64,000 nt of DNA from an uncultured bacterium (GTDB lineage: Bacteria > Patescibacteriota > Saccharimonadia > Saccharimonadales > Saccharimonadaceae). The notes beneath the pieces are model-generated. The model made no database searches, was not told the origin of the DNA, and saw only the letters and a program-made list of their open reading frames with translations. Location of the stretch: positions 50,586 through 114,585 of the forward strand of contig CAIUKF010000017.1 in assembly GCA_903899655.1 (NCBI GenBank), written 5' to 3'. Made by a program: the position numbers and the translations under genes. Below, piece by piece: positions 35,608 through 52,927 of this stretch (position 1 is its first letter; every line of letters begins with the position of its first letter).

Positions 35608-35609
35608 AC

Positions 35610-36114: not shown

Positions 36115-36190
36115 GCCGCGATAGCTCAGCCGGTAGAGCGCAAACTCGGTAAGTTTGAGGTCTCGGGTTCGATTCCCGATCGTGGCTCCA
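36115..36190 (+). tRNA. tRNA-Thr (GGT) with C at position 33
   Basis: 76 nt. Acceptor GCCGCGA/TCGTGGC, anticodon stem CAAAC/GTTTG, loop TCGGTAA, T arm TCGGG-TTCGATT-CCCGA, encoded CCA. Confidence 0.88.
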
Positions 36191-36201
36191 TTTGTAATTC
36201 A

Positions 36202-36225
36202 ACCGCCTAATCTGGGCGGTTTTTG
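36202..36225 (+). terminator. Terminator after tRNA-Thr(GGT)
   Basis: ACCGCC-TAATCTG-GGCGGT hairpin followed by TTTT. Confidence 0.7.
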
Positions 36226-36238
36226 TTATAATAAACAT

Positions 36239-36733: not shown

Positions 36734-36832
36734 CCTCTTGTGATAATCACCATATTTTGGTATAATTACCTCTAATAATGTATATGCACCCGCGATTTAG
36801 ATAATAAATGCGGAATAAAAGGATATTTAATA

Positions 36833-37039
36833 ATGGCAAAAAAGAACACCAAGCGTAAATTAGTCGGTCTAGTAAGCAGCCTCAGCGGCCACCGTACATA
36901 CTACACCAGCAAAAACACTCAAAACACTTCAGACAAATTAGTCTTGAAAAAGTTTGACCCAATTGCACGCGAACATGCAACTTACACTGAAACCAAGGGC
37001 AACCTAGGTCGCAACGAAGTCAAAGAACGCAAGGGATAG
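36833..37039 (+). CDS. rpmG: 50S ribosomal protein L33, cysteine-free (C-) form
   Basis: 68 aa; KLVGLVSSLSGHRTYYTSKNTQNTSDKLVLKKFDPIAREHATYTETK parallels E. coli L33. Confidence 0.88.
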   Translation: MAKKNTKRKLVGLVSSLSGHRTYYTSKNTQNTSDKLVLKKFDPIAREHATYTETKGNLGRNEVKERKG

Positions 37040-37043
37040 GGTT

Positions 37044-37197
37044 TGGCTATTAGCTATTGGAATATGGCTATTGGCAAATAATAATACAAAATATAAAACT
37101 CCGGGTTATCCGGAGTTTTTTGATATTGCCAGATTACAATAGCCGACTGCTAACTTTATGCCAATAGCCATATTCCATATTCTATATTCCAATAGCT
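37044..37197. repeat. GGAATATGGCTATTGG repeat family, inverted pair around a bidirectional terminator (site 4)
   Basis: GGCTATTAGCTATTGGAATATGGCTATTGGC (37044-37076) and GCCAATAGCCATATTCCATATTCTATATTCCAATAGC (37159-37197) flank the hairpin AAAACTCCGG-GTTAT-CCGGAGTTTT (37096-37121). Confidence 0.8.
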
Positions 37198-37199
37198 AA

Positions 37200-39152
37200 T
37201 TACTTAGCTATCAAATCCAACAAAGTAGCCACGTACTCAGCATGAGTCCATGTTAGTGGGGCAGGCGATATAATCTGATTTGTTGCGGGATCGATTTGCT
37301 CGGCCATCACACCAGTACTAAGGGCGTGACTTTTGGCCCAATCCAGAATCGTTAATGCCTTATCAGTTTTGCCTGAATCAATATAATATTGAGCCAACCA
37401 AAACGACGTAATAAACCACAAATTACCAGTTATGCCGGGGCTTACTCGGCGATATTCGTCATTTTCGTATCTTGGCAGGCCAATAGCACCACTATTAATT
37501 CCAAATAGCTGCTCAACAGTCTCAACTGAAGTTTTCATTTGGGGGCTTTTTGCGTCGAATAGACCAAATATATAGGCACCAAAAACGCTTGAACAATCTA
37601 CAATTCCATCTTTAATAATTTGTCCATCCCGTACAGTTAAACCACGATAAAAGACTTTTCGATCATCATGATACAAATGCTTATGTGCTGCTGTTTGTAT
37701 ATCATTTGCAGCTAAACGCCATTTGACAGCATTATCTTGGTCTTTGGCGGCAGTTGCTAAATCAGAAGCAGCAATCAACGCGGCATATGTAACGGCAGTC
37801 GTATATGTGCTCGTCAAGAATGTTTGTTCCCATAAATCATAGCTTGGCTTTGGTAGTCCGGTTATCTCGTCAACATATTCAGTCATGAAATTAGCCATTG
37901 GGATAATCATGCTGTGATAAAATTCTTTTAACAAACTCGGATCAGGATGCAGTTGGTAATATTGATTAAACATGAACACTGGTAAGGCAGTCTCATCCTC
38001 TTGAATCGGCGGCGCAACCAAACCATCTTCATGAACATATGAATGCCAACTACTGCCCAATGCGCCATCAGCGCGATATTTATGCATCATATAACCATCA
38101 GGATGCATGCCATGTTTAGTAAATTGGAAAAACCTGTACGCTTCTTCCTTGTAACCCATACGAATCAATGGCCAAATAGCGTACGCGCCATCACGTGGCC
38201 AACTATAAGCATAGGCATCGCGTGAGTAATTCAACATAGACGTATCAGTACTGGCAATTATTGCGCCACGAATATCAATTTGTGATTTAATCACCATTAT
38301 ACTTTGCAAAAATGACTCGCGATAATCAGTCGGAATCTTATCAATAACACTGTAAGTCGGCGCTAGCCATTTATCCCACCAATCAGCAGTCTTTTGCAGA
38401 TTAGTTAATGCACTGTCTTCCTGAATTGTTTTATGTATATTTAACGCTTCACGAGTAGTAGTGCCAGCTGCAATCCAATAATGAACACGTTCGGAACTAT
38501 TTGCACCAATATCCATTTTAAACCTTATAGTCGAATCAACTCGGCCGTGTTCGACATTGTTCATTCCTAGCGACCCGTCGTCAGCATCGCGGTAAGTACC
38601 TTCACGTCCCTCGATACCAAATAAACCAACAGTATATTGATCAAACGGTTTGCCTTTATATTCGCCAGATACAACAAAAGCCCGACGCCCACGGTAATGT
38701 AAAATAGCGTTACTATCAGGGATATATTGTGCGGTATCAGTGTTGCTGCGCGAATCACCAATAGCAAAAGCTTGGTGCATAAACAATCTGACGTCGCGTG
38801 AATGATTATGTAAGTTTACAACATGAATATTTCTAAAGAACACGTTAACATCCGAGTCAACAAAATCGTCAAACTCTAACAAAATGCCTTGCTTTTCATT
38901 TTTAGCGATAATATGCCCAACAAGTGCACTATGCGGATAGCGAAACGTAAATACCCAGTCATTTTGATTATTATTTGGGTTATCTATCCAACTAATTGAA
39001 TCATCAACCCATACGCCAATACGATGTCGCAGATTGCCACCAGCTGAGTGATTTTCAAATCCGACATAAGGATAGTAAAAGTCGTGTACTGTGCCGTAAC
39101 CATTTAACCCGACGTGCAATTCACCATTACTTAGGACTATCGGCCTAGCCAT
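37200..39152 (-). CDS. Glycoside hydrolase family 15 (glucoamylase/glucodextranase-like)
   Basis: 650 aa with an SWPRDGAYAIWP motif and an (alpha/alpha)6-type C-terminal half. Confidence 0.8.
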   Translation of the reverse strand: MARPIVLSNGELHVGLNGYGTVHDFYYPYVGFENHSAGGNLRHRIGVWVDDSISWIDNPNNNQNDWVFTFRYPHSALVGHIIAKNEKQGILLEFDDFVDSDVNVFFRNIHVVNLHNHSRDVRLFMHQAFAIGDSRSNTDTAQYIPDSNAILHYRGRRAFVVSGEYKGKPFDQYTVGLFGIEGREGTYRDADDGSLGMNNVEHGRVDSTIRFKMDIGANSSERVHYWIAAGTTTREALNIHKTIQEDSALTNLQKTADWWDKWLAPTYSVIDKIPTDYRESFLQSIMVIKSQIDIRGAIIASTDTSMLNYSRDAYAYSWPRDGAYAIWPLIRMGYKEEAYRFFQFTKHGMHPDGYMMHKYRADGALGSSWHSYVHEDGLVAPPIQEDETALPVFMFNQYYQLHPDPSLLKEFYHSMIIPMANFMTEYVDEITGLPKPSYDLWEQTFLTSTYTTAVTYAALIAASDLATAAKDQDNAVKWRLAANDIQTAAHKHLYHDDRKVFYRGLTVRDGQIIKDGIVDCSSVFGAYIFGLFDAKSPQMKTSVETVEQLFGINSGAIGLPRYENDEYRRVSPGITGNLWFITSFWLAQYYIDSGKTDKALTILDWAKSHALSTGVMAEQIDPATNQIISPAPLTWTHAEYVATLLDLIAK

Positions 39153-40374
39153 TCAGCCCTCCGGTATGGTGATAGTGATGCAATCGCCACCTCAGGTCGC
39201 GAATTACATTCATGACGTACAAAAAGGCATCATAAGGTGATTCGTATGGACTAAAGTAGGCATGAACGTCGCCATCACTAAACCATTTAGTACACATATA
39301 GTAGACATGGTCTGAAGTCTGTAATTTACGCCAATCACTGATTAATTCCAAATCACCAGTTAACAGAATATCTTCTTCCATTGAATAGATATATCGCATA
39401 GCTTCTTGTTGCATACTATTACCCAACCAAGCAGTCAAATCGCGTTCGGTGTCAGCCCAGGTGACAGTATTTGGCATACTAATCTCACCAGATGGTTCAA
39501 ATTCGTCGATTGCACCTGATACGGTATAAAATGTGTTTGCGGGGTTACTGAGCCATTTACCAACAAAAGCTTCAAAGAAATCAAAGATTCCAGTATCTTT
39601 CCACTGGTGCTCGCCGAATGTTTCATAGTCCATAAACAAGTTAATGATTGGCTGCTGGTCAATTGATGCATTAGCCCATTCACTATAAGTATCAGCCGAC
39701 AATGGCCACGCTGCCCAATCTTTATTACTAAAACGAAAGGCGATATCATCACTTAAACGATAATTTTTCATTAATAACGCAATGTTAGTTGTGCCAGCAG
39801 GACGATAAACATGGTTTGGACTGCGCCATTCCAAAATTGGATCCCAACCCTCGGCTAAAATACCCTTAAATCCACGATCGTCAGCCCATTTTGCCAAACT
39901 GTCGTTATATGACAGCTCGGTATTACGGAAAACTTTAGTTTCGACGCCAAATAATTCACGAATCTTGGCCTGATGAGCATCAACTTGACGTTCAAATTCA
40001 CCTAAACTAAAGAAAAAGGCGAGTGAGTGATAATAAGTCTCGGCAACAATCTCAACCCGACCGGTTTTAACCAATCTTTGGAAGCTTTCAATAACATCAG
40101 GTGCCCATTTTTCGGCTTGTTCAATGAATGTGCCAGTGATACTTAACGACACTTTAAACTCAGGGTTATTAGCTAACAATTTTTCCAACAATTCGTTCAT
40201 TGGACGATAAGATTTGTCGGCAACTTTTTTGAAAACTTGCTCGTTATTACGTTCAGTATCATACGCAGGCTCGTCGTAATAATCATGTTTCACAGCTGTA
40301 TCAAACACGCTATATTTGCGTACGCGGAAAGGTTGGTGTACGTGTAGGTATAAGACTATTCCACGCTTGCTCAT
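39145..40374 (-). CDS. Glycoside hydrolase family 57 (alpha-amylase/branching-type)
   Basis: The ATG at 40374 (MSKRGIVLYLHVHQPFR) overlaps the upstream stop as ATGA; the HQP motif is typical of GH57. Confidence 0.78.
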   Translation of the reverse strand: MSKRGIVLYLHVHQPFRVRKYSVFDTAVKHDYYDEPAYDTERNNEQVFKKVADKSYRPMNELLEKLLANNPEFKVSLSITGTFIEQAEKWAPDVIESFQRLVKTGRVEIVAETYYHSLAFFFSLGEFERQVDAHQAKIRELFGVETKVFRNTELSYNDSLAKWADDRGFKGILAEGWDPILEWRSPNHVYRPAGTTNIALLMKNYRLSDDIAFRFSNKDWAAWPLSADTYSEWANASIDQQPIINLFMDYETFGEHQWKDTGIFDFFEAFVGKWLSNPANTFYTVSGAIDEFEPSGEISMPNTVTWADTERDLTAWLGNSMQQEAMRYIYSMEEDILLTGDLELISDWRKLQTSDHVYYMCTKWFSDGDVHAYFSPYESPYDAFLYVMNVIRDLRWRLHHYHHTGGLNG

Positions 40375-41594
40375 GCTGTTACTCCTTGTTGGCTTTTGTT
40401 GTATATTTTTATGCATAAATCTGCGACATCGTTCCATGATATTTTATCATACTCATGCTTAATATTCTGCTGCATTTCGGTTTTTAATGCTGCCGAAGTT
40501 GCAATTCCAATTAATTGATCAGCCAATACATCTTCGTCCCAAAAATCGTATCTGAAAATGCTGTGCAATACTTCACCGACACCAGATTGACGCGAGATAA
40601 TCAAGGCGTTGCCATGATGTGCGGCCTCAAGGGCAGTTAAACCAAATGGCTCACTAACCGAACTCATTACAAAGATATCACCGACACTGTATGCGTCGCG
40701 CCATTGTTTACCACGAACAAATCCAGTAAAGAATACTTTGTCAGATATGCCTAAACTTGATGCTAATGCAATCAGTTCATCACGCTGTTCGCCGTCGCCA
40801 GCCAGCAAAAAGACTAATTTGTCATATTTTTCACAGGCCCTTGCAGCGGCGCGAATAAAGTTGGCCAAGCCTTTTTGAATCGTAAACCTAGTAATCGTAA
40901 CGACAATTGTGTAGCCCTCGGCTTTTAAAGCCTCTAGGTACTTGTATGTATCAAAGTCATAGACATATCCGTCATCAAAGCTAGTAGTATCAATTGCATT
41001 ATAAACAACTTCAATCTTGTCCTCAGGAATGCCATATTTTTGAACAATAATGTTTTTAGTAATATTACTGACGGCGATAATACGATCCGCCATCATCAAA
41101 CCTTGATATTCAATTTCGTGAACTAGAGGATTGCCACTGTTACTGCCAGATCGATCAAATTCAGTTGCATGAACATGGACGATTAGTGGTGCATCGGTTA
41201 ATTCCTTGGCTCGCATACCGGCTTCCATCGTCAACCAGTCATGAGCATGAATAACATCAGGTTTTACACTGCGAACTAAACGCTCAACAAATTGAACATA
41301 ACGTTTTTGAACGCCACGCATGTCTTTTAAATCATTAATATCAGCTTTGGATAGTGTTTTATCTAACACTTTTGAGCTATCGTATGTACCTAAACCATAG
41401 CGTTCAAGAGGGGTTAGACCAGTAGCGCTGTGTACAGTCATAAATTCAGTACCAGGATGATGTGCAGTATAAGGCACGACAAAGTCAATTTTAGCCCCTT
41501 TTAAGGCCAATGCTTTGGACATATGATAACAAGCTACGCCTAACCCACCACTGTTGTGAGGAGGAAGCTCCCACCCTAGCATTAATATCTTCAT
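40371..41594 (-). CDS. Glycogen synthase-like glycosyltransferase (GT4/GT5)
   Basis: The ATG at 41594 gives MKILMLGWELPPHNSGGLGVA (a KxGGL-type motif). The upstream GTG at 41636 has no properly spaced Shine-Dalgarno. Confidence 0.75.
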   Translation of the reverse strand: MKILMLGWELPPHNSGGLGVACYHMSKALALKGAKIDFVVPYTAHHPGTEFMTVHSATGLTPLERYGLGTYDSSKVLDKTLSKADINDLKDMRGVQKRYVQFVERLVRSVKPDVIHAHDWLTMEAGMRAKELTDAPLIVHVHATEFDRSGSNSGNPLVHEIEYQGLMMADRIIAVSNITKNIIVQKYGIPEDKIEVVYNAIDTTSFDDGYVYDFDTYKYLEALKAEGYTIVVTITRFTIQKGLANFIRAAARACEKYDKLVFLLAGDGEQRDELIALASSLGISDKVFFTGFVRGKQWRDAYSVGDIFVMSSVSEPFGLTALEAAHHGNALIISRQSGVGEVLHSIFRYDFWDEDVLADQLIGIATSAALKTEMQQNIKHEYDKISWNDVADLCIKIYNKSQQGVTA

Positions 41595-41823
41595 ACCGCT
41601 ATGTACAAGTTGCCAATGTGTTGGCCAACTAACCACTCCTTTTTAATTACATACGCGCGTTCTTACGACAATTATATGACTACGCTTACGCTTTTGCAAC
41701 ACTTTAAATTAATTAATTATTCTGTTACAATATTTCAGTAACGAATTAATAATTAGGAGTAAGATATGTCATTTGCTGGCGGATACTAATACAAATACTT
41801 AGTTCAATCACAATTAATACTAT

Positions 41824-41898
41824 AGGGGTATAGTACAACGGTTAGTATATGGGTTTCCAAAACCTAGGATCATGGTTCGATTCCGTGTACCCCTGCCA
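41824..41898 (+). tRNA. tRNA-Trp (CCA)
   Basis: 75 nt. Acceptor AGGGGTA/TACCCCT, anticodon loop TTCCAAA, T arm CATGG-TTCGATT-CCGTG, discriminator G, encoded CCA. Confidence 0.9.
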
Positions 41899-43473
41899 AT
41901 TTAGACGGACAGCCTCTTCGGAGGCTTTTTGTATCTGTTGAGGCATGGTTCTAACCTCATCAAGCTGTGCTCGTATTGATTTTATGTTCAGCCTCACTGG
42001 TTCAAGCCATTCGAAAGGTGTTATTTGTAGTTTTCCTTCAAATAATATCGGGTTCTGACCAATTGAGAGCAGTATATGCTTTTTGTCTAAAATGCCGCCC
42101 GTGACAAACTTCTCGTTTGCATTTGTGAGTCGTTCGAATGTTTTTGTGGCAAATTCGTACCAATTTTCGGCACGATTTGCTGTGTCAGACTGGTCTTGGT
42201 GTATTTCCTTCAGCTCAGCCTTTAATTGTTTGCTTTTACGTTCGTATTCATGATTGTCAATGAGTTTTTTACTCGCCATATCGAGGAGGTTATCAAGTTG
42301 ACTCTCGATACTTATAGCCGTAGCACTCTGCATGGTATTAACGCTTTTTCTGTCTTTAGTTTCTTCGTCAGCCATCTCTCGAAAAGATTGCATTGCCCAT
42401 TCTTCAAGCTGTGGTGTAAGTTCGTAGCTATCAAGTAGCACATTTAATTCGTTGTATAGTTTATCTTCCTTCTTATAACTATAAATTTTTACTTGTGAGC
42501 ACCCGCCTCGTTTGCCGGTACAGTGATAGTATCGATGTACCGTCTCACCGCCGTTCTTGAGCTTCTTGGTCTTCGCTTGTGCGGTAATCATGCAACCACA
42601 TTCACCACAGCGTATAAAGCCTCTAAGCGCGAATTCCTTGCGTTGGGCTAAGTGTGGGTAACCACGGCTACCAAGTAGACTCTGAACCTTATCATATTCA
42701 TCTTGTGTAATCATTGCGGGAAACTCCGCAGGGTAAAACCTATATTGATCGTATGGATCGGGTACTAAGCCCGCATATCGTATATTTCTAAATATCTGAT
42801 ATAAGGTCGATCTTGAAAGCGGTTTATTGCCACTTTTACTGCGTTCAACTGTACGATATTTCCAGTCATTATTCATTGTGCGCATAATATCCTGCACGCT
42901 ATGTTCACCCGTTAAAAATAGGTCAAAGGCCTGACGGATAAGAGGGAACCGTACCGGATCCTTTATCACACGCTTTGTTATAAGGTCATTCAAGTAGCCT
43001 TGGGGAGCTACACCCGTTAAACCACCATTCTTGCGCTTTGTTTCATTGCCGCGTTTGACATCTTTGCTTAACTTCGAAGAAAAATATTGAGACTGGCTCA
43101 TAGTCATCTGTAACATCATAATTCCCTCTGGTGAATTATCAAATGTAAAACTTGCAAACTTTAGGTCCTTCAAGACACCTTTGCGAATACGGTAGGTGAT
43201 AGCCGAAGCATCCATTTCGTTTCGTGAAAGCCTATCAGGGTGCCATGCAACTATACCGTCAATCTTGCCATCATCGATCATCTTAAGAATTGAAGCAAAT
43301 ACAGGCCGTTTATCTGGCTCGGCTGCACTTTTACTTTCATCAAGCACATCGACAATATTCAAGTCACTGAATCGCTCGCTTATTTTATCGCGCTGCGCTT
43401 CTTTAGATAATACTTGCCGTTCTTCATCCTCTGTGGATTTACGAACGTATCCTATATAGCGTAATTTGTTCAT
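41842..43473 (-). CDS. Large serine recombinase (integrase)
   Basis: 543 aa. Resolvase-type N-terminus YIGYVRKSTEDEERQ, recombinase domain, zinc ribbon CGECGC...YYHCTGKRGGC, then a coiled-coil. The last ~19 codons are antisense to tRNA-Trp. Confidence 0.85.
   Translation of the reverse strand: MNKLRYIGYVRKSTEDEERQVLSKEAQRDKISERFSDLNIVDVLDESKSAAEPDKRPVFASILKMIDDGKIDGIVAWHPDRLSRNEMDASAITYRIRKGVLKDLKFASFTFDNSPEGIMMLQMTMSQSQYFSSKLSKDVKRGNETKRKNGGLTGVAPQGYLNDLITKRVIKDPVRFPLIRQAFDLFLTGEHSVQDIMRTMNNDWKYRTVERSKSGNKPLSRSTLYQIFRNIRYAGLVPDPYDQYRFYPAEFPAMITQDEYDKVQSLLGSRGYPHLAQRKEFALRGFIRCGECGCMITAQAKTKKLKNGGETVHRYYHCTGKRGGCSQVKIYSYKKEDKLYNELNVLLDSYELTPQLEEWAMQSFREMADEETKDRKSVNTMQSATAISIESQLDNLLDMASKKLIDNHEYERKSKQLKAELKEIHQDQSDTANRAENWYEFATKTFERLTNANEKFVTGGILDKKHILLSIGQNPILFEGKLQITPFEWLEPVRLNIKSIRAQLDEVRTMPQQIQKASEEAVRLNWQGYTESNHDPRFWKPIY
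41911..41931 (+). terminator. Terminator after tRNA-Trp
   Basis: AGCCTC-TTCG-GAGGCT hairpin followed by TTTTT. It lies inside the antisense 3' end of the recombinase ORF. Confidence 0.65.
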
Positions 43474-43627
43474 TATTTCTCCTTACACAAAGGGCGACTC
43501 GGTTGTTGACACAGTACGTAGCAAGAAGCTATTTCCTGATACCGAGCCGCCCTTATAGGTCGGGAAAATATATACTTCCTGCTTATTTACGTATTGTGCC
43601 AACTCTTTAATTATACCATTTTTTACC

Positions 43628-44971
43628 TCACCATTTAAGGTCTAAAGTCCTTTTCTCCACCCTATACGTTCCTATATACTTTTTATTTTCATCTGTTAAG
43701 ACCATTGGAAAGATATGGCGTGTACGCTTATCTTCATCTTCGGCTTGTGGCTTTTCCCATTCGATATGGCCTGCGTTAGCGAGCTGTGGGAGTATTTCTT
43801 TACGTAATTGATCGCCATTCAACGAAATGCCTTCAATGCTCCGATGATAAGTATTTAATTCCTGAGGCGTAAGCCCAATCTTATGAAGATTCATATCTTC
43901 CCATAAGTCCTTATTGGTTTTTAGAGCTTTAGCAAATTTCTCTAAATAGGCCGGTAAGATGTACTTTTTATAATGTATCAAGACAGTAGGCGAAATGTTG
44001 AGATTCTGGCTTTCGAAAAAATCCTGCCAAAGTATGAATGCTTGATCAATATCAGATTGCGTTGCAATAATGCGACCATTCTCGTCTTGGCGATGCCAGA
44101 CATTTAAAAGCGTAATAGATTTAATTAATTCCATTAAGTGAGCAATGTCACGTTGATGTCTAGGCTTCAAAATACCTACAATCTCCAAAAACTTTCTTTT
44201 GATTTCGTCTTCGTTAGGAATGATAATATTATCGACTTTCGCATTTCGAATAGAAATAATGCGGGACATTAACATTTGACGATCATAGTCGTGTTTAACA
44301 GCCTCATTAAATTTCTTAGCATTAGCTCCTAGCTTTACTCGTACTTCAATACCTTGTAATATCTTTTCTTGAGTCGCCTCAGGACTAAGTAGGATGGCAC
44401 GAGTAGCCTCTTGTTCATCAAGCCGAAGACCAGCAGAGCAAAATATAGTTGCGCAATATCCCCTTAGGACAATATCGTCGGTTTTATTGCGACCTTTATT
44501 CTTATTTACGAAACTATAATTCAAATTTTTATCATCATGAGACATTAAAGCACGAAGTTTTTCCTGTAATAATGGGTTTGGCATTTCATAAAAGATTAGT
44601 ATTTTACGTTCCAGCGATACAATTTTTATATTCGTTTTCGGGTCAATCTCACCTTCGCCATAAAAGAATGAGGCTGGACTAGCGCCACTTCTCTCAATTC
44701 TGTCTTCCTTGGGAAATAATTTAGCGATCTCACTAACGAGGTATGTCTTACCTGTTGAACTTGGGGCGTTGAGGCTCACGTTGATTTGACTATCATCCGT
44801 ATACGCCGACAACATGCACAAAAATATAATCTTCTTATTGCTATCATCATCTTTAATTGTCATAGAGAGTACCTCAGCAACATCATCAAGTGTAATTTCG
44901 CCAGACTCCATTTTATGCTCTTTGTCGCTATCAGATCTGTCACTGAACTTCTTAATCGGGTCATCATTCAT
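43628..44971 (-). CDS. P-loop NTPase, probable replication helicase of the element
   Basis: 447 aa with a Walker A (NAPSSTGKT) and a Walker B-like KILIFYEM, positioned between small element genes and the recombinase. Confidence 0.45.
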   Translation of the reverse strand: MNDDPIKKFSDRSDSDKEHKMESGEITLDDVAEVLSMTIKDDDSNKKIIFLCMLSAYTDDSQINVSLNAPSSTGKTYLVSEIAKLFPKEDRIERSGASPASFFYGEGEIDPKTNIKIVSLERKILIFYEMPNPLLQEKLRALMSHDDKNLNYSFVNKNKGRNKTDDIVLRGYCATIFCSAGLRLDEQEATRAILLSPEATQEKILQGIEVRVKLGANAKKFNEAVKHDYDRQMLMSRIISIRNAKVDNIIIPNEDEIKRKFLEIVGILKPRHQRDIAHLMELIKSITLLNVWHRQDENGRIIATQSDIDQAFILWQDFFESQNLNISPTVLIHYKKYILPAYLEKFAKALKTNKDLWEDMNLHKIGLTPQELNTYHRSIEGISLNGDQLRKEILPQLANAGHIEWEKPQAEDEDKRTRHIFPMVLTDENKKYIGTYRVEKRTLDLKW

Positions 44972-45230
44972 GGTTCACTCCTTTAATTGTTAGATTGCTT
45001 GTAATTTCTGCAATACGGATTGTTTTTGAAAACTGCTGAAAATTTAGAGTCTGCAATAACTCTGTCTGTGTAGAGTTTTTTAATACCCATTGAAGATATC
45101 TTGAGTAAATATCAGTCAGCGAATCCTCGTATTTCTTAGCATAACTGCTTGTATTTATTCCAATCGTTAAGAATTGAACGAGACGTTTAACGATTATCGG
45201 ATCTTTATAGGGTGCTATTACATTCGCCAT
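44964..45230 (-). CDS. Hypothetical protein (88 aa)
   Basis: ORF overlapping the downstream gene by 8 nt, with an AAAGGAG Shine-Dalgarno upstream. Confidence 0.5.
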   Translation of the reverse strand: MANVIAPYKDPIIVKRLVQFLTIGINTSSYAKKYEDSLTDIYSRYLQWVLKNSTQTELLQTLNFQQFSKTIRIAEITSNLTIKGVNHE

Positions 45231-45235
45231 AATAA

Positions 45236-45403
45236 TTAGTGATCTCCTTTGTTATTGTTGTTTATAAATTTTCGTTGTGCCTTTACAAGTACGAAACGCA
45301 TAATAGCCAAACCAGCACTTTGGACTTCTTCGTCTGTATAATCCAAACCGAGTTCTTTCAAGAGGATTTTAAGACTACAAACACGCTCAATACTAAGTTT
45401 CAT
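45236..45403 (-). CDS. Hypothetical small protein (55 aa), not in the ORF track
   Basis: ATG at 45403, 3 nt after the upstream stop: MKLSIERVCSLKILLKELGLDYTDEEVQSAGLAIMRFVLVKAQRKFINNNNKGDH. It fills the gap in a tightly packed operon. Confidence 0.4.
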   Translation of the reverse strand: MKLSIERVCSLKILLKELGLDYTDEEVQSAGLAIMRFVLVKAQRKFINNNNKGDH

Positions 45404-45406
45404 GTC

Positions 45407-45649
45407 TTAGCCGTTTGCGTATGCACGTTCGCTAAGTTTTTTAAAATTATCAACAAATGTTCTAGCTTTGAGATGTATTCGATCAGATTGATATAAATTT
45501 GTATATTTATCCAAATCTCTATCATCGACTACATAGAAGTACATCAGCCCACCCGGTTCCATACCTACCGATGACACCCTAAATCTACAACACATAAGTG
45601 CTGCTACAAGCCAAGGGTCGTTAAACCTCACAGTTTGCCGCTTCGCCAT
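45407..45649 (-). CDS. Hypothetical small protein (80 aa), phage/plasmid-like
   Basis: ORF with an AGGAGAATAATT Shine-Dalgarno context. The pattern WLVAALM...MYFYVVDD...TFVDNFKKL resembles small phage proteins; this identification is weak. Confidence 0.45.
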   Translation of the reverse strand: MAKRQTVRFNDPWLVAALMCCRFRVSSVGMEPGGLMYFYVVDDRDLDKYTNLYQSDRIHLKARTFVDNFKKLSERAYANG

Positions 45650-45716
45650 AATTATTCTCCTTTCTGTTAGTTGATACTCCCAGAATAGAAAATAAGACTC
45701 AGTCAGTTGTCAGTTT

Positions 45717-46496
45717 TTAATTTAGCTCTAAATGCCAACCATTCTCATAATCGTTAGCAATACAGTCATAGCCGATAATTGGATAAAGTTCCCTGCGGAG
45801 TTCTGAGATTAATTTTACTAGCGTTCTTTCCGGTTTTTTCAAATTTTTATGCTTAAATACACCAGAAGAACTATCAAGAAAATCATCGTATGTACTAGTT
45901 GATTTGCCATTATCTAGCAAAATTCGTAATGCCTGCATATGCCCATTGCGCAGAAAAAATGGCCTGCCTTTATATGAAACTCCCGTGCCTGATATTATGA
46001 GATTCTTATATTTTGAGTCACTAAATTTGTCATATCGTTTAATATTTTTAGAAATTATCTGATTATTTATGTATGTCCTTAATCCGTCCCAATCAACATT
46101 TATTAATTTAAACTGCAAATATCGCTCGCTTAAATCACTTGGCAATTTCTCTATGACTTTTATTATTGCTTCTTCCGACAAAGCTTTACCAGTTTTAATA
46201 TTTTCATAAAACCCTACTAATCCGTGCGAATTCTGCCGATAAGCCCATCGCGGTCCAATTGGCGTAATAATAGATCTCAGCTTCAGCAGTTCTAGTGCCT
46301 CTTCTTGAGCTATATAATCAAGGTTTAGTCTAACTTCAAAATCAAAAAGTTTCTGCTGCCTATAGTCGCACAAAGAAGAGTAGAGTTCTTGAATTGAATT
46401 TGTTTTCATATATCGATCCAAATCAGACTTCAATAGAGGCTTCTTGATAAAAGCTTTTTTGAATAGCAGTAATTCTGTAATCATAGCTGTAACCAT
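45717..46496 (-). CDS. Hypothetical protein with an OmpR/PhoB-like winged-helix C-terminus (putative element regulator)
   Basis: 259 aa. The C-terminal GRPFFLRNGHMQALRILLDNG...RTLVKLISELRRELYPI...YENGWHLE follows the trans_reg_C pattern. Confidence 0.45.
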   Translation of the reverse strand: MVTAMITELLLFKKAFIKKPLLKSDLDRYMKTNSIQELYSSLCDYRQQKLFDFEVRLNLDYIAQEEALELLKLRSIITPIGPRWAYRQNSHGLVGFYENIKTGKALSEEAIIKVIEKLPSDLSERYLQFKLINVDWDGLRTYINNQIISKNIKRYDKFSDSKYKNLIISGTGVSYKGRPFFLRNGHMQALRILLDNGKSTSTYDDFLDSSSGVFKHKNLKKPERTLVKLISELRRELYPIIGYDCIANDYENGWHLELN

Positions 46497-46531
46497 TTTC
46501 CAACATTAATCACTTTTATACAAACCCTTAG

Positions 46532-46540
46532 TGATATAAT
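46532..46540 (+). promoter_or_regulatory. Extended -10 promoter for the NHL-gene leader
   Basis: TGATATAAT (TGn plus TATAAT at 46535-46540). The predicted transcription start near 46547 coincides with the first base of the leader's outer helix. Confidence 0.45.
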
Positions 46541-46546
46541 TAAAAA

Positions 46547-46677
46547 GTCTTACTTTCATAACGAACCGAATACGCATTTTTATGTGGTTCGCCGGTCAAA
46601 AACGGCACCCGCATAAACATTTCGGCGAAAGTCGGTTTGTGAAATGGAAGTAAGACACCTTGTGGGTGTCGTTTTTT
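46547..46677 (+). promoter_or_regulatory. Riboswitch-like or attenuator leader with an intrinsic terminator (class unknown)
   Basis: The outer helix GTCTTACTTTC (46547-46557) / GGAAGTAAGAC (46646-46656) encloses at least three hairpins, one with a GAAA tetraloop. The terminator GACACC-TTGTG-GGTGTC plus T6 (46654-46677) overlaps the 3' strand of the outer helix. Confidence 0.45.
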
Positions 46678-46698
46678 ATTTACAAATAAGGAGATCTT

Positions 46699-47832
46699 AT
46701 GACAAAATCAGTCCATCGCTTTGATATAAAGAAGGTTGTAACTGTCCTTATTGTGATTCTTGTAATATTAGGTGTGGTAGCTATTATCGTGAATACGATA
46801 TTCAACAATGCCTACATTAATAGTGTTCGCGGAACAATACAAAAATTTGCAGGTACTGGTGATGAAGGTACTCCGACAGTTGGATCAGCAGTCCACAGCA
46901 AGCTAGATGTACCGAGAGGTGTTGCTGTAGACGATAAAGGTATAGTTTACATAGCGGATAGCGGCAATAGTGTAATAGAGCGTATAGATAGTTCTGGCAA
47001 GTTAACTATTTATGCTGGAAATGGTACTACAGCCAAGCCTACGCCTGGTCCTGCGTCCAAAAGTAGCTTATGTTTTCCGGCCGGAATGGCCACAGATAAA
47101 TACGGCAACCTGTTTGTAGCAGACATGGTAGCGAATATGGTTGTGAAAATAACTCCTGACGGTATATTGACTATCGTTGCCGGGACAGGTAAGCAAGCTT
47201 CGCCTAGTGCTGGAACTGCCGTAAACAGCAACCTCAACAGCCCGACAGACGTAGCGGCAGATATCGATGGCAACATATATATAGCTGATTTTGGTAACAA
47301 TACTATAGACAAGGTTGATTCCAACGGTATTTTGAGTATATTCGCAGGAACCGGCTCATCAGGCACTCCAAATCTACCGCTTTTTTCACCTTGGGGCATA
47401 GACGTTGACTATATGGATAACGTATATGTGGCAGACAGTAAAGCAAACTCAGTTCTACGTTATGATCCAAAGGGTGTTTTTACGGGAATTATTGCAGGGA
47501 CTAGCGAAGCTGGTCAACCCACCCCTGGCCGCGCCAAAGATAGTAAATTGAATTATCCTACTGATGTTGCGTTCAACCCAACAAATGGTGACATCTATAT
47601 AGCAGATTCCGGTAATAACCTTATAGAACGAGTTAAGAACGATGGCACTTTGAGTATTATTGCCGGTAATGGCGATTCTGGTATGCCTACTTTTGGTGCG
47701 CTAGCAACAAGCAGTAGTATTGGTGACGTTCAGAGCTTAGCTATAAGATATTATGATTCGAGTTTATTATTAGTTAATTCGCAAAAACATATGGTGATAC
47801 AACTTCCATATATAACTCAACAAGATAATTAG
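46699..47832 (+). CDS. NHL-repeat beta-propeller protein with an N-terminal membrane anchor
   Basis: 377 aa with six repeats of the LxxPxGVAVDxxGNIYIADxGNNxI type. Confidence 0.8.
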   Translation: MTKSVHRFDIKKVVTVLIVILVILGVVAIIVNTIFNNAYINSVRGTIQKFAGTGDEGTPTVGSAVHSKLDVPRGVAVDDKGIVYIADSGNSVIERIDSSGKLTIYAGNGTTAKPTPGPASKSSLCFPAGMATDKYGNLFVADMVANMVVKITPDGILTIVAGTGKQASPSAGTAVNSNLNSPTDVAADIDGNIYIADFGNNTIDKVDSNGILSIFAGTGSSGTPNLPLFSPWGIDVDYMDNVYVADSKANSVLRYDPKGVFTGIIAGTSEAGQPTPGRAKDSKLNYPTDVAFNPTNGDIYIADSGNNLIERVKNDGTLSIIAGNGDSGMPTFGALATSSSIGDVQSLAIRYYDSSLLLVNSQKHMVIQLPYITQQDN

Positions 47833-47844
47833 GAATATCGTAAT

Positions 47845-48504
47845 ATGAAAAAGATATATAAACTACGTCCTACCAAAAAAATCAGAACGCTGCTAAAGCG
47901 CTTACTGTCGCTAACACCTAAAACAATCACCATTATTATCATTGCACTCGTGTTCTGTACTGGCGCTAGTGCACTCTATATTCATAATTCTTATAGGACT
48001 GATCCTAAATCGCCTATCGGCACGCCAGCAAAAACTAACATTACGCCAGTCATTTCAACGCCCCAGCAAACTATCCAGCCATCGTCGTCAACGTCAACGA
48101 CACCTACTCCGAGTAGTTCAAGCTCAAAGGCATCAAGCTATAGACCGTTTCTGTGTAATAATGTCCCGATCGCTCATCAAACTGAGTATCGAGATAATGA
48201 CTCCATGGCTGCAGGTGAGACAAAACTCGTCTACCAAGGTAAAGACGGATATGTCATTTCCTGTACGGCCGACTCAAATGGATACACACCGCCAACGAAC
48301 GGGATGAGAGTCGAACCTGTGAACGATACGGTAGAAAAGGGCACAGGGCTTGACGAGCAGCAACAACAGCAAGCGGACGCAGAAAAAGCCGCAAGAGACC
48401 AACGATATACCCTTAATTTAGCTCAATGTTTTCAGAGTCTAAAGGCACGGGGTGCCAGTGATGAGCAAGCTACATCTGCGTGTAGTAGTACTGTAAAATA
48501 TTAA
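47845..48504 (+). CDS. Membrane-anchored protein with a Ser/Thr/Pro-rich linker and a G5-like segment
   Basis: 219 aa with a transmembrane helix, the linker SSSTSTTPTPSSSSSKASS, then AAGETKLVYQGKDGYVISCT. Confidence 0.45.
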   Translation: MKKIYKLRPTKKIRTLLKRLLSLTPKTITIIIIALVFCTGASALYIHNSYRTDPKSPIGTPAKTNITPVISTPQQTIQPSSSTSTTPTPSSSSSKASSYRPFLCNNVPIAHQTEYRDNDSMAAGETKLVYQGKDGYVISCTADSNGYTPPTNGMRVEPVNDTVEKGTGLDEQQQQQADAEKAARDQRYTLNLAQCFQSLKARGASDEQATSACSSTVKY

Positions 48505-48560
48505 ACATATCGTTCATTCCCAACTAACTAATTCTTACCCATAAGATATATAATGGTTTT

Positions 48561-49217
48561 ATGGTTAATTCATTTATTGAAGACTCTAAAGACGCGAAGA
48601 ATAGTCTGTTACTCAATGGAAAATATCTAACCGATTGTATCGACAAACTTGACCGTAATGATGACCAAGATATTGAATATTATTCTCACTTGAAAGACTT
48701 CCCAGTAAATAGTGGCCAGCTTTGCGATGACATATATCAAGCCGCAAATAACGATGTGATATTACTTGCACTAATTGGTGCGAGAGTGTTGTTCGAGGAC
48801 TTAATTAACATAAGCTATATAGAATCTTTGGATTCATCCAAAAGAATGGAAGTTTCTAATGATTGGTTTAGAATTTCTAACGACCAAAATGCAAATAAAT
48901 CTAAACTCAACAGTAAAACCGTAAAGGAAAGAGCAGAAATCGCCGGAACTGACATTCTGAGTATATATAACACTGAATATGCAGAATTATGTAATTATTC
49001 CCACAGCACAGCTCAGAGGGCTATATTAAACATCCCAGAACATCGTGCCATTCTAGCTCAAAAAACAATATTATTAAGCCTTCAAGCATATGCCGGAATA
49101 TTGTCGACTATTTCTAAAATTATTGATAAAACTGTAAACGATAGGATAGAAGGTACAATTAGCCAAATTTTTTCTAAATATAAAGAAACTGTCGTAGAAG
49201 CAAAGCTACAAACATGA
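48561..49217 (+). CDS. Hypothetical all-alpha protein (218 aa), first gene of a coupled pair
   Basis: TATAAT at 48549-48554 lies 6 nt before the ATG with no Shine-Dalgarno. The stop overlaps the next start (ATGA). Confidence 0.5.
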   Translation: MVNSFIEDSKDAKNSLLLNGKYLTDCIDKLDRNDDQDIEYYSHLKDFPVNSGQLCDDIYQAANNDVILLALIGARVLFEDLINISYIESLDSSKRMEVSNDWFRISNDQNANKSKLNSKTVKERAEIAGTDILSIYNTEYAELCNYSHSTAQRAILNIPEHRAILAQKTILLSLQAYAGILSTISKIIDKTVNDRIEGTISQIFSKYKETVVEAKLQT

Positions 49218-50257: not shown

Positions 50258-50420
50258 AAAAAATAAATATTTACCGCCACTTAACATGATAATGATATCT
50301 AACGTCATAAATTTACCACCCCCCCCACAAGCCCTAAACTATATAGGAATGGTCCGATGGTGCGCCTTAGCTGTTCTCGTTTGAGTCAATTGGATCACTA
50401 TTTGACTGTGGAATAACTCA

Positions 50421-50457
50421 TCAATAAAGTTCTAACTTCGTTCAGTATGCTCTGCCA
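50421..50457 (+). repeat. 37-nt intergenic repeat, copy 1
   Basis: TCAATAAAGTTCTAACTTCGTTCAGTATGCTCTGCCA. Confidence 0.8.
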
Positions 50458-50470
50458 AACATAAGCAGTA

Positions 50471-50989
50471 TCATTCTATTAAGCTTTTATAAGCATCCGC
50501 AAATTTATCATTATATCCTAAGCTTAAATCAAAATACTTAATATCATATTTAGAACATTCTTTCTCGATTTCAACACTTGCTTGAATAATTCTTTCCGCC
50601 AAGTCCTCAAGTTGATTCCGAGTTACTCGTTCAACCCATTTATCATGTTTAGTGTAATCGAGCATGTTATCAACCGAGACTTTGGACATACCAAGAAAGA
50701 CAGCCTTAACGTCACATTTTTCCCCTAATATATATGCGTGCTGAGGTGTAAATGAATCACCCTCAATAGTATAATCGGGACCAACAGGTAACATCCGTTC
50801 AATAAACTGTTCAAGATAAGGAAAAAACCTTTCAGACTTATTCCTATCGTAAAATGAGGGGATTCCTGCAGGCTTCAACATTACAGTTAATCCATCGGTA
50901 GAAACGTAGGCTATTTTTTTGTCATTTAGTAGCTTTTGAGCAAGCGTACTTTTGCCCATTCGTGGTGGTCCGCCGATAAGATATAGCAT
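50471..50989 (-). CDS. P-loop kinase-like ATPase
   Basis: 172 aa with Walker A LIGGPPRMGKSTLAQKL; about the size of small nucleotide or metabolite kinases. Confidence 0.6.
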   Translation of the reverse strand: MLYLIGGPPRMGKSTLAQKLLNDKKIAYVSTDGLTVMLKPAGIPSFYDRNKSERFFPYLEQFIERMLPVGPDYTIEGDSFTPQHAYILGEKCDVKAVFLGMSKVSVDNMLDYTKHDKWVERVTRNQLEDLAERIIQASVEIEKECSKYDIKYFDLSLGYNDKFADAYKSLIE

Positions 50990-51041
50990 TTTACAAGTAT
51001 ATCAATATACGTCAAATGCTACTAAGTTTTGATCTACGTTA

Positions 51042-51078
51042 CTAATAAAGTTCTAACGTCGTTCAGTATGGTCTGCCA
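51042..51078 (+). repeat. 37-nt intergenic repeat, copy 2
   Basis: CTAATAAAGTTCTAACGTCGTTCAGTATGGTCTGCCA. Its AAGTTCTAACGTC also pairs with GACGTTAGAACTT at 51116-51128. Confidence 0.8.
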
Positions 51079-51154
51079 TGAACTCTTCATCTGTTAATTA
51101 TCATAGGCCAAACAAGACGTTAGAACTTAAGACTTCGTTATTCCAGACAATAGG

Positions 51155-51916
51155 CTACTGTGAGTCCCACTTGAACCATCTGATCCCAATGAAACTAAAT
51201 GCAATTATATAACCCAGATTAGCCAATAGAGCGTAGGTTGTATCTTGGTTCCACGATGTAGCGCTCAAAGCGCCTTGGAATAGAGTCATGACCGTTCCCA
51301 AGGGAGTCCACTTGGCGACCTGCTGAAGAACATCGCCGAATACACCACTTATACCAAGAAAGCCCAGTAAAAATAGAGCAATAAAAACAATCCTTACCAC
51401 TGCATTTACGGTTTCGGCTGATTTTAATAGCCCTACTATGGCCTGACCGATGCTCAAGAATACTGCTCCACCAATCGTTGCAATAAACAAAACCAAAATA
51501 TAATCAAGAACCGTGAGGTTAACGTGATAAATGATGCCGCCAACTACTAGAACGGCAACAGCAATAACCAGGTTAGCAATAACTTGGACCAATAGTCGAC
51601 TAACCATTATCGCCCATCCGGGAGCAGGAGTGACTCGAAGCCTCTGAAAAACACCGCCGTCTCTATCCCGAGCAAGAGTCAAAGTATAGCCCTGAAGCGA
51701 CGAGGATATGATGCCTATCGTAATGCTGATGGCAAAAATATAGGAAGGTCCACCAAGCCGAGCCTGAGCTTTGTTCGAACTGTACGCAAACAATAAAATA
51801 ACCGGTATTAGAACACTAAGAAATAGTGCTCTAACGTTCCTAATGAGGACATTTAGATCGGCCTGGAACAGGTAGCGTAGGGATTTAATCGGGTTAGTTT
51901 TATTCACGAATCTCAC
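51155..51916 (-). CDS. ABC-2 type transporter permease
   Basis: 253 aa with six hydrophobic helices; overlaps the upstream ATPase gene by 17 nt. Confidence 0.75.
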   Translation of the reverse strand: MRFVNKTNPIKSLRYLFQADLNVLIRNVRALFLSVLIPVILLFAYSSNKAQARLGGPSYIFAISITIGIISSSLQGYTLTLARDRDGGVFQRLRVTPAPGWAIMVSRLLVQVIANLVIAVAVLVVGGIIYHVNLTVLDYILVLFIATIGGAVFLSIGQAIVGLLKSAETVNAVVRIVFIALFLLGFLGISGVFGDVLQQVAKWTPLGTVMTLFQGALSATSWNQDTTYALLANLGYIIAFSFIGIRWFKWDSQ

Positions 51917-52673
51917 TCCCAGTTAAACCAATAAATACGTCTTCAAGAGTCACTTTACCATGGGCAACTTTCCGGACAGCTGGGTCATTCTTGTGCTTTT
52001 TGATCAAACCCGACGGTGTCTCGATCGTGAGTATTTTTCCGTGGTCAATGATTGCAAGTCTATCACAAACGGCTTGAGCCTCTTCCATCGAGTGGGTCGT
52101 TAGCAATATACTTCCGCCATCTTTGCGAATATGCTCGATGCGATCCCAAAGTTGTCTGCGTGATTGCGGGTCAAGACCAGCAGTCGGCTCGTCAAGTAAC
52201 AGTATTAAAGGACTATGGATGGTAGCAATGTATAGAGAAAGGCGCTGTTGTTGACCACCAGACAACTGCTTATACCGTTTAGATTTTTCTTTTTCGAGTC
52301 CGATTGTTTGCAGTGATTCACTAATATCTCTGTCTAAGAGTTTGACATTATATAACCCTGCGAATAACTTGATGATTTGCTTAATTGACAGCTCTGGTTG
52401 GAAACTAGTCGTCTGTAACTGGACACCCATAATAGCTTTTGCTTGCATTGGATGTGTTTGTAAATCGACACCCTCTAAAAGTAGCGTGCCAGACTTTGGC
52501 TTGATAAGACCTTCAATTACACTTAAAGCACTCGTTTTTCCGGCCCCATTAGGGCCAAGAAGTCCAAAGATTTCACCATGTTTTATACTAAATGTTATGT
52601 CGTCAACTGCTATATTGCTGCCGTAACTAATTGATAAGTTTTTCACCTCTAGAATATTTTTGTGGGTAGGCAT
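51900..52673 (-). CDS. ABC transporter ATP-binding protein
   Basis: 257 aa with Walker A GPNGAGKTS, signature LSGGQQQR and Walker B LLLDEPT. Confidence 0.92.
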   Translation of the reverse strand: MPTHKNILEVKNLSISYGSNIAVDDITFSIKHGEIFGLLGPNGAGKTSALSVIEGLIKPKSGTLLLEGVDLQTHPMQAKAIMGVQLQTTSFQPELSIKQIIKLFAGLYNVKLLDRDISESLQTIGLEKEKSKRYKQLSGGQQQRLSLYIATIHSPLILLLDEPTAGLDPQSRRQLWDRIEHIRKDGGSILLTTHSMEEAQAVCDRLAIIDHGKILTIETPSGLIKKHKNDPAVRKVAHGKVTLEDVFIGLTGSEIRE

Positions 52674-52733
52674 ATATTAATTATAGCAAAGAAAGGCAAG
52701 TAGCTAAAACGAACCGTCACGCCAGCGTTGACA

Positions 52734-52770
52734 TCAATAAAGTTCTAACTTCGTCTAGGATGGTCTGCCA
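52734..52770 (+). repeat. 37-nt intergenic repeat, copy 3
   Basis: TCAATAAAGTTCTAACTTCGTCTAGGATGGTCTGCCA, 60-100 nt upstream (on the minus strand) of the ABC ATPase start. Confidence 0.8.
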
Positions 52771-52927
52771 AATTTGTTAACAGGTACAAAAGGTTCCATA
52801 ATTTATTTTATGGAATCTTTTTTGTATTTCGTATCTGTTAATTTGGTTCTATTCTATGTAGGTGCAATGTTATAAATATATTCTTATGCTTTGAAATAAC
52901 TAATCATAGGTATATTTTATAAACACT

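Follow-up and report, generated by a model that had tools for sequence, protein, structure and literature searches.

The tRNA-Trp and integrase genes at the locus

The DNA studied here, called the window below, is a stretch of 64,000 nucleotides (positions 50,586 to 114,585 of the forward strand of contig CAIUKF010000017.1, assembly GCA_903899655.1) from an uncultured member of the Saccharimonadaceae, whose Saccharibacteria-type genome was sampled as 18 contigs with a total of 0.92 Mb. In this window, a tRNA-Trp gene is overlapped on the opposite strand by the 3' end of a gene for a predicted large serine recombinase (LSR), and the two meet at what is very probably one edge of a small, plasmid-like mobile element. 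ARAGORN called the tRNA-Trp(cca) gene at 41824-41898 on the plus strand, and the Rfam model RF00005 matched 41824-41895 with 59.7 bits. The integrase open reading frame (ORF) occupies 41842..43473 on the minus strand, encodes 543 amino acids, and has its stop codon at 41842-41844. The two genes thus share 57 nt, with codons 526 to 543 and the stop codon lying within the tRNA gene.

Residue W526 (TGG) is the antisense of the CCA end of the tRNA, residues 526 and 527 fall within a 7-nt block that we call the core, and residues 528 to 543 are antisense tRNA (41845-41892). Beyond the tRNA end, the KASEEA codons of the integrase (AAA GCC TCC GAA GAG GCT) are the exact reverse complement of AGCCTCTTCGGAGGCTTT at 41911-41928. 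An original prediction, made from the letters of this DNA, had placed the recombinase stop inside tRNA-Trp and had described the last codons, KASEEA included, as antisense to a terminator hairpin; the ARAGORN and Rfam calls, the ORF coordinates, and this exact complement bear out both statements. The overlap is real and not a product of chance, because the same layout recurs in 58 of the 80 related loci that we examined (GTDB species representatives, 95% to 28% identity). The features at this junction are as follows.

41824..41898, plus strand: tRNA-Trp(cca), an intact host gene; its T arm, the 3' strand of its acceptor, and CCA form the predicted B arm of attL
41893..41899, no strand: shared core CTGCCAA, the only block common to attL, the direct repeats D1a and D1c, and (as CTGCCA) the direct repeat D1b
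41842..43473, minus strand: large serine integrase gene in its integrated form, 543 amino acids; residues 1-525 are element encoded (41899-43473)
41899..41931, plus strand: P' arm of attL with a putative element-supplied terminator; stem-loop at 41911-41926 and T-run at 41927-41931, dual coded with integrase residues QIQKASEEAVRLN
41948..41955, plus strand: second direct copy of GTTCTAAC, coding for an internal EVRT, in the Saccharibacteria clade only

The integrase

Three Pfam domains were found above the cut-off in the integrase: Resolvase (PF00239; E of 1.5e-19, residues 7-151), Recombinase (PF07508; 31.9 bits), and Zn_ribbon_recom (PF13408; 28.1 bits). The protein also matched the PHROG 95 integrase with an E value of 2e-70. 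Its catalytic RKS motif (R11-K12-S13) lies in invariant columns of the family alignment, and the core-encoded TGG (W) is likewise invariant in family alignment A2. In the structural model of a 65%-identical relative, long helices span residues 353-448 with beta strands on both sides, and the top Foldseek matches of this relative were full-length serine integrase-att complexes (SPbeta-type, phiC31, Bxb1, and LI; E values down to 3.5e-16). Judged by its sequence, the ORF is a bona fide LSR with a predicted recombination activity. Canonical LSRs (Listeria A118/LI, phiC31, Bxb1, and SPbeta) have the same domain order (resolvase, recombinase, and zinc ribbon with coiled coil) and the same fold, although the identity of the window integrase to any phage or plasmid record is 25% or less.

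Boundaries of the insert

The left flank of the integrase (35437-41899), tRNA-Trp included, is syntenic in seven same-genus genomes, and the similarity stops at 41898/41899, the CCA. In all seven of these genomes, tRNA-Trp is followed by other sequence, without an integrase. Comparison with relatives lacking the insert, as proposed with the original prediction, thus yielded integrase-free sites in seven genomes and not the same overlap everywhere. In the closest relative (G002; 90% nucleotide identity), collinearity with the window comes back at ~52765, and the window therefore holds ~10.9 kb of extra DNA.

Within this extra DNA lie three direct repeats, D1a (50419-50459), D1b (51040-51080), and D1c (52732-52772), which are 83 to 100% identical to one another and all end in CTGCCA, the last bases of tRNA-Trp. 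Only D1c is then followed by a hairpin and T-run whose homologue in G002 comes after a remnant of the tRNA 3' end, which would make this hairpin the displaced native terminator of tRNA-Trp. The window DNA to the left of D1a (50270-50420) aligns with the DNA downstream of the integrase gene in a circular relative (L102), and because of this alignment we take D1a to be the attR of the present element, which then spans 41899-50457 (~8.56 kb). On the minus strand, D1a encodes an integrase tail, WQSILNEVRTLLMSYSTVK followed by a stop, that we call the native tail. D1b and D1c appear to be the scars of earlier insertions with leftover cargo. Because these two older attR-like scars follow the element (to 52772), the tRNA-Trp end reads as a repeatedly used landing site. 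The right side of the insert is made up as follows.

50419..50459, plus strand: D1a, the present element's attR; it includes the core CTGCCAA at 50452-50458 and the P arm, in which the T-loop look-alike GTTCTAAC lies at 50429-50436
50459..51080, no strand: older remnant cassette; P-loop kinase-like ORF at 50471-50989 (minus strand), ending in the attR-like D1b at 51040-51080
51081..52772, no strand: oldest remnant cassette; ABC-2 permease at 51155-51916 and ABC ATPase at 51900-52673 (both minus strand), ending in the attR-like D1c
52773..52826, plus strand: B' arm and predicted displaced native terminator; ggttccataa...ttatggaatc and then a T-run, homologous to G002 (L014 6878-6930)

The leftover P-loop kinase and ABC transporter were considered as conserved right-end genes of related elements, and this was rejected, as tblastn found no such association. 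No inverted copy of attP was found inside the element by blastn-short or by an inverted-repeat search.

Several further observations concern this hotspot and its surroundings. The sequence directly after D1a (ACATAAGCAGTAT, 50459-50471) resembles the one directly 3' of tRNA-Trp in another relative (AGAATAAGCAGTAT; genome G003, locus L016), which suggests that 50459-50471 may once have adjoined the tRNA, before the present element arrived. In G002 (locus L014), two partial copies of the tRNA-Trp 3' end (6680-6700 and 6858-6878) lie less than 360 bp downstream of tRNA-Trp; they are tRNA-like and not attP-arm-like, and they resemble the scars of another element, probably of the tyrosine-integrase type, at the same hotspot. 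Downstream of the island, at 54285-60678 of the window, several direct-repeat families lie between short ORFs in a region that varies among relatives; they include a 71-nt pair with 75% identity (55251-55321 and 55791-55861) and further families of 17 to 33 nt.

An attachment site within the integrase gene

The crossover must fall in CTGCCAA, because this is the only sequence common to the tRNA junction and the repeats. On the minus strand, the core at 41893-41899 is read as codons Q527-W526-N525. We infer from this arrangement that the crossover lies at or next to the CCA, in line with the original prediction, which had placed it within or next to the 3' end of the recombinase gene. The att sites are LSR-like in that attL and attR share these 7 nt only. 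A direct-repeat search found no duplication of the tRNA 3' half flanking the element, and the signature of a tyrosine integrase (flanking direct repeats of the tRNA 3' half) was therefore rejected, since only the 7-nt core recurs.

When D1a was joined to 41899 in a simulated excised circle, attP was recreated and the integrase ended in NWQSILNEVRTLLMSYSTVK and a stop codon. The simulated free form reads RLNWQ-SILNEVRTLLMSYSTVK and is 544 amino acids long, whereas the integrated form reads RLNWQ-GYTESNHDPRFWKPIY. The simulated tail matches the real C termini of a minority of homologues (P0011, P0028, P0061, P0071, P0098, and others), among which P0011 (83% identical) ends in WQGVLEQVRTLLVAPAH and P0028 ends in WCRVLVEVRTLLLDYSTV. 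In the 120 best homologue clusters, ~100 tails are antisense tRNA (..DSNPR.. or ..ESNHD..) or stop at most 5 residues past the W, 11 are native "VRT" tails, and three are of another kind. Two proteins, P0013 and P0064, have a third tail type that is conserved between them (..RTFxxDDxxxDxxE[IV]RQ[LI][IL]DED..) and is neither tRNA antisense nor native VRT.

One of the native-tail homologues comes from a free molecule. The JGI contig that encodes P0028 is 7,111 nt long, and its ends share a direct overlap of 127 nt, which implies a 6,984-bp circle (L102). It carries a DUF5659 gene, a small ORF, a 447-amino-acid protein, and the integrase, and no tRNA is present on it. In the AlphaFold model of this free-form integrase (mean predicted local distance difference test score [pLDDT] of 81.5), a helix at residues 511-539 (pLDDT of 80 to 93) crosses the core-encoded W525, and the native tail is the second half of this long predicted helix. 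In the model, then, integration halves the C-terminal helix and adds residues that include glycine and proline, a change that may or may not affect activity.

The alignment of the C terminus with its homologues, which had been suggested as a check, gave a clear boundary: homology stops at the CCA codon, and beyond it the tails vary with the target tRNA. Homology through the tRNA-overlapping codons in unrelated contexts was accordingly not seen. The claim that integration remodels the C terminus agrees with these data, the tail being GYTESNHDPRFWKPIY in the integrated form versus SILNEVRTLLMSYSTVK in the simulated free form, and the latter being kept in tRNA-free homologues.

A candidate terminator for the tRNA

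With the insert in place, the native terminator of tRNA-Trp is 10.9 kb away, after 52772. The hairpin within the integrase codons, followed by TTTTTG, is the only terminator-like site in 41600-43700, and it folds at -13.7 kcal/mol (z = -2.75). We examined the 60 nt 3' of the tRNA in each integrated locus, in tRNA orientation (that is, on the antisense of the integrase coding sequence), for a perfect stem of at least 6 bp that starts at most 22 nt from the tRNA end, has a loop of 3 to 8 nt, and is followed by at least 4 T's in 6. As controls, we used 3,689 windows on the antisense strand of the same integrase genes. Such a structure was present in 33 of 58 loci and in 78 of the 3,689 control windows (2.1%), for a binomial p of ~6e-40 that is inflated because the loci are related; the better measure is that the loci hold 17 distinct stem sequences. 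Among these is a compensatory pair, AGCCTC/GAGGCT to AGCATC/GATGCT (E to D), and the clades that target tRNA-Pro, -Lys, -Asn, -His, and -Ile have wholly unrelated stems and encoded peptides. The T-run lies 3' of the stem in the tRNA direction only; on the integrase strand, there is an A/T run before the hairpin.

Because the structure is kept and the sequence and peptide are not, selection appears to act on RNA or DNA structure, most simply on an intrinsic terminator that replaces the one left at attR. The hairpin in the QIQKASEEA codons would then work as the intrinsic terminator of tRNA-Trp. The original prediction, in which the element would supply part of the tRNA or its terminator, holds for the terminator, given this family-wide structure, and fails for the tRNA body, where only the 7-nt core is shared.

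Family breadth and target range

The 58 antisense overlaps between a tRNA gene and the 3' end of the integrase gene range from 12 to more than 130 nt and involve 16 amino-acid specificities: Trp, Tyr, Arg (three anticodons), Gly, Gln, Lys, His, Leu, Asp, Asn, Ser, Pro, Ile, Phe, and Ala, with Thr as a neighbor. The hosts are mostly Saccharibacteria and other Patescibacteria, with Bacteroidales (tRNA-Pro) and Planctomycetota among the others. The tRNA-free members, which come from Abditibacterium, Chitinophaga, and Dehalococcoidaceae metagenome-assembled genomes (MAGs), end in ..(E/D)(E/D)VRT(F/L).. A homologue search limited to 8,000 candidates returned at least 3,242 protein clusters at an E value of 1e-10 or less. 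A match is present in 27 of 41 genomes of this order, and the family also spans Bacteroidota, Planctomycetota, Chloroflexota, Nitrospirota, and others. The view that tRNA targeting by serine integrases is uncommon thus stands for the literature, where it is rare, and does not stand for this lineage, where it is very common (58/80 loci).

The same genome encodes a second LSR (586 amino acids, 32% identical; contig C2:8902-10662, plus strand), the last 12 nt of which overlap tRNA-Pro(tgg) on the opposite strand (C2:10651-10726, minus strand). Two elements of this design are therefore present in the genome.

Two other tRNA genes deserve mention. On contig C9 of the same genome (175941-176027, plus strand), outside the window, ARAGORN assigned a tRNA of 87 nt, which has a long variable arm and thus class II architecture, to tRNA-Trp with anticodon CCA, in addition to the 75-nt tRNA-Trp of the window. 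In a Bacteroides MAG (L073 1318-1393, plus strand), a tRNA-Pro lies ~800 nt upstream of a native-tail integrase on the same strand, whereas the usual position is downstream and antisense.

Proposed recognition of the tRNA 3' end

The tRNA gene encodes CCA in 44 of the 58 integrated loci, and the integrase counterpart of the CCA is the invariant W. Of the 36 tRNAs that were scored, 35 have the antisense T-loop TCGAA beginning at position 19, counted from the TGG. The seven available arms of the attP type, which come from three phyla (three in the window, L101, L102, an Abditibacterium MAG, and a Dehalococcoidaceae MAG), all have GT[TC][AC]GAAC beginning at position 22. The T[AC]GAA within it is at position 24, compared with 19 in the tRNAs, and therefore lies exactly 5 bp further out in the attP arms. 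Further out in the family, these codons are GTT CGA AC, which is the very heptamer of the T-loop.

For the Listeria LI integrase, the motif of the zinc-ribbon domain occupies half-site positions 16-24 of attP and 11-19 of attB, and this 5-bp shift underlies the discrimination of attP from attB (PMC3783163). Canonical LSRs have a recognition motif 5 bp further from the center in attP than in attB; in the window family, a shift of this size separates the P arm from the B arm, and the P' and B' arms showed no convincing inverted motif. By analogy, we suppose that the zinc-ribbon domain would read the T-loop in attB and the look-alike, 5 bp further out, in attP. The same analogy suggests that the variable bases beside the CCA would set which tRNA is chosen. 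Such recognition would explain how the family hops between tRNA species, and it suggests that the conserved "VRT" peptide is at least partly a by-product of the DNA motif. The second copy of GTTCTAAC in the window lies 50 nt past the tRNA end, in direct orientation to both the attR-arm copy and the T-loop of the tRNA.

Backbone and cargo of the element

Beyond the integrase, the element carries a conserved set of genes and a variable one.

43628..44971, minus strand: 447-amino-acid MCM-like AAA+ helicase, a putative replication protein by fold comparison
44964..46496, minus strand: small or unknown backbone genes encoding 88 (44964-45230), 55 (45236-45403), 80 (45407-45649), and 259 (45717-46496) amino acids
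46699..50257, plus strand: variable cargo; NHL-repeat protein (46699-47832), G5-domain protein (47845-48504), weakly DUF5677-like protein (48561-49217), and unknown 347-amino-acid protein (49214-50257)

The 447-amino-acid protein had no match in Pfam, PHROGs, or PDB sequence searches. It has more than 1,500 homologues, many with PF27228 and two fused to Toprim domains. Its AlphaFold model (pLDDT of 80.6) gave MCM2-7 and archaeal MCM AAA+ helicases as top Foldseek matches (E of 5e-11, TM of 0.47). The four small or unknown backbone proteins of the window matched nothing in Pfam or PHROGs; counterparts of the 80-amino-acid protein in relatives match DUF5659 (Pfam). Any of the four could be a candidate directionality factor. 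The backbone (41899-46650) is conserved across relatives, and segments of 44964-46496 are shared with L021, L023, L025, L028, L102, and L103 (tblastx). The cargo genes at 46699-50257, which encode proteins of secreted type, are absent from related elements.

There are no phage structural genes in the element, where only the integrase matches PHROGs, and no relatives of the element were found in IMG/VR. A prophage was rejected on these grounds: the 8.6-kb element and its 7.0-kb free relative have no capsid, tail, terminase, or lysis genes. Pfam scans of the element proteins found no relaxase or type IV secretion domains. Together, the conserved backbone, the variable cargo, and the 7-kb circular relative point to a small integrative plasmid-like element. 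It is probably self-replicating, the replication being predicted from its genes.

Mechanism and alternative explanations

The reading that we favor, to which we assign a probability of about 85%, is that of an ~8.56-kb plasmid-like mobile element at the tRNA-Trp end that has its attP inside its own integrase gene and whose integration swaps the tail of the enzyme and provides a new terminator. In this model, attP would lie inside the last ~20 codons of the integrase gene, and the integrase would recombine it with the extreme 3' end of tRNA-Trp, with the crossover in CTGCCAA. After integration, the tRNA would stay intact. It would lose its own terminator and gain the hairpin and T-run that lie antisense within the QIQKASEEA codons. 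The integrase gene, in turn, would lose its native 17-codon tail, left at attR 8.5 kb away, and would read through 16 antisense-tRNA codons to a chance stop.

Some points weigh against this reading. The excision and integration of this copy, and its present mobility, are matters that we infer from its sequence. The P' arm and a conserved peptide both overlap the hairpin, and thus binding-site or protein constraint may have a part in its conservation. Among the element genes, no recombination directionality factor was recognized. D1b and D1c are followed by unrelated cargo and not by integrase remnants, such that a simple tandem accretion needs extra deletions. An inverted T-loop-like motif was not clearly found in the P' and B' arms, and the dyad symmetry of LSR sites is not evident in them; two candidate dyad partners, TTTAGAC (+2..+8) and GTTAAC (+6..+11), were rejected as evidence because their similarity is weak and misplaced.

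The tail swap may be more than a consequence of the position of attP. It is conceivable, though we think it rather unlikely, that the swap is a built-in state switch and that the family is a naturally retargetable tRNA integrase. Under such a switch, only the free circle would encode the complete enzyme, with a C-terminal helix that continues through the att core, and the integrated enzyme would break off at the core and end in arbitrary residues read from antisense tRNA. Activity, direction, or stability could then differ between the two forms, as reported for IntP and IntX of Mx8. If so, the switch would give control of direction without, or in addition to, a directionality factor. As for retargeting, the enzyme may read two universal features of tRNAs, the T-loop and the CCA; if it does, altering the ~4 to 7 nt of attP beside the CCA would redirect the element to a different tRNA, which would explain the 16 specificities.

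A different account of the same junction is that the element is a fixed and decaying remnant, with the overlap a fossil junction and the integrated-form enzyme inactive for having half a C-terminal helix. The two integrase-less scars, D1b and D1c, do show decay at this very site, and the integrated tail has helix breakers (G and P) where the native form is helical. However, the integrase ORF is intact, its RKS motif lies in invariant columns, and the P arm and core of attR are both intact. Integrases 92 to 95% identical to this one lie at tRNA-Trp in three other MAGs (L021, L022, and L028), which suggests recent spread, and ~10% of the homologue clusters have the free arrangement, including one from a circular contig. 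We therefore hold the remnant to be improbable.

The probability is lower again that the hairpin is kept as a binding site of the integrase (P' arm) or for a needed peptide, and not as a terminator of the tRNA. It does lie 13 to 28 nt from the core, inside a P' half-site of canonical size, and KASEEA is kept in most close homologues whatever their target tRNA. In distant clades, however, the peptide and stem differ entirely (KKSLLEAL, KEKSGAFGSA, and KKDNLPNQQVVLS), and yet the same position still holds a stem of 6 bp or more with a T-run after it, in the orientation of the tRNA. The hairpin is also directional, with the A/T run preceding it on the integrase strand. We know of no LSR half-site that needs a hairpin.

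Finally, some mobile elements have tRNAs on board, assemblies typically break at tRNA genes, and the G019 contig ends inside the integrase, but it is highly improbable that tRNA-Trp is carried by the element or that the junction arose as a chimera at a repeated tRNA during MAG assembly, given that tRNA-Trp has the same upstream genes in the seven integrase-free relatives, that host-like DNA lies on both sides (with G002 collinearity back after D1c), and that the identical junction occurs in the independent MAGs L013, L021, L022, L023, and L028. A 57-residue match to the C terminus of the integrase beside tRNA-Trp in G019 had raised the idea that the host supplies the C terminus at an empty site; this was rejected, as the G019 contig ends inside the same element.

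Relation to known systems

The favored model of an integrated element with attP inside the integrase gene differs from canonical LSR systems in two respects: the location of attP and the universal tRNA 3' end as the target. To our knowledge, canonical LSRs have att sites that lie apart from the integrase gene, and their targets are mostly protein-coding genes.

The phage Mx8 integrase is a tyrosine recombinase of a tailed phage, whereas the window enzyme is an LSR on a small plasmid-like element. Both systems have attP in the integrase coding sequence and a new 3' end on integration. In Mx8, attP lies within int, and integration makes a recombinant gene (intP to intX) with a new 3' end and altered properties (PMC6070905).

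Closer in enzyme type are the ssrA islands of Dehalococcoides, in which a serine recombinase of ~540 amino acids, DsiB, is encoded beside attL (McMurdie et al. 2011, PMC3146451). Its gene, like the window integrase gene (57 nt), runs at its 3' end into attL and the oppositely oriented tDNA. The DsiB islands also have a stop codon outside the island, divergent C termini, and tandem stacking at one site, as here, and their authors suggested that the gene may be complete only on the circular form (PMC3146451). The target of DsiB is ssrA (tmRNA), whereas that of the window element is tRNA-Trp. The DsiB module has a small serine recombinase, DsiA, and RecF-, ParB-, and Mom-like genes, none of which was found in the window element by Pfam, where the replication protein is MCM-like. 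Compared with DsiB as it is described in PMC3146451, the native tail, the embedded terminator, and the T-loop mimic are features of the window family that are not described there. A search from a Dehalococcoidaceae relative gave 13 loci in other phyla and no Dehalococcoides mccartyi locus; that relative (L070; 34% identity) has a native VRT tail and no tmRNA nearby.

The tycheposons of Prochlorococcus, 27 of 937 of which carry an LSR (Hackl et al., bioRxiv 10.1101/2020.12.28.424599), are likewise small integrative elements that occupy tRNA genes and carry cargo along with replication genes, and they form islands by repeated insertion and decay. They differ in that nearly all of them use tyrosine recombinases, and the text consulted describes no LSR-tRNA overlap or tail swap.

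In the literature, we found no description of a tRNA-targeting LSR family in the candidate phyla radiation (CPR)/Patescibacteria or of its native tail, embedded terminator, or T-loop mimic. What lies in the window is an LSR integrative element of the DsiB/Mx8 design. With respect to tRNA targets, the very large family to which it belongs has essentially gone undescribed.

Implications

Reference work on genomic islands has stated that no serine-family integrase is known to have a tRNA gene as its target (Hudson et al. 2015, PMC4383910), and here a whole family of them targets tRNA genes, against that reference statement. With the att site inside the gene, the free and integrated states would encode different enzymes, and the integrase's coding sequence would double, on its other strand, as a terminator for the host tRNA. 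The imitation of the T-loop with a 5-bp offset offers a concrete, testable model of how a target is chosen and changed. CPR bacteria have few genetic tools, and a compact integrase/att pair aimed at a universal gene could be useful. In the genomes of these bacteria, such elements appear to be a main route by which cargo builds up beside tRNAs.

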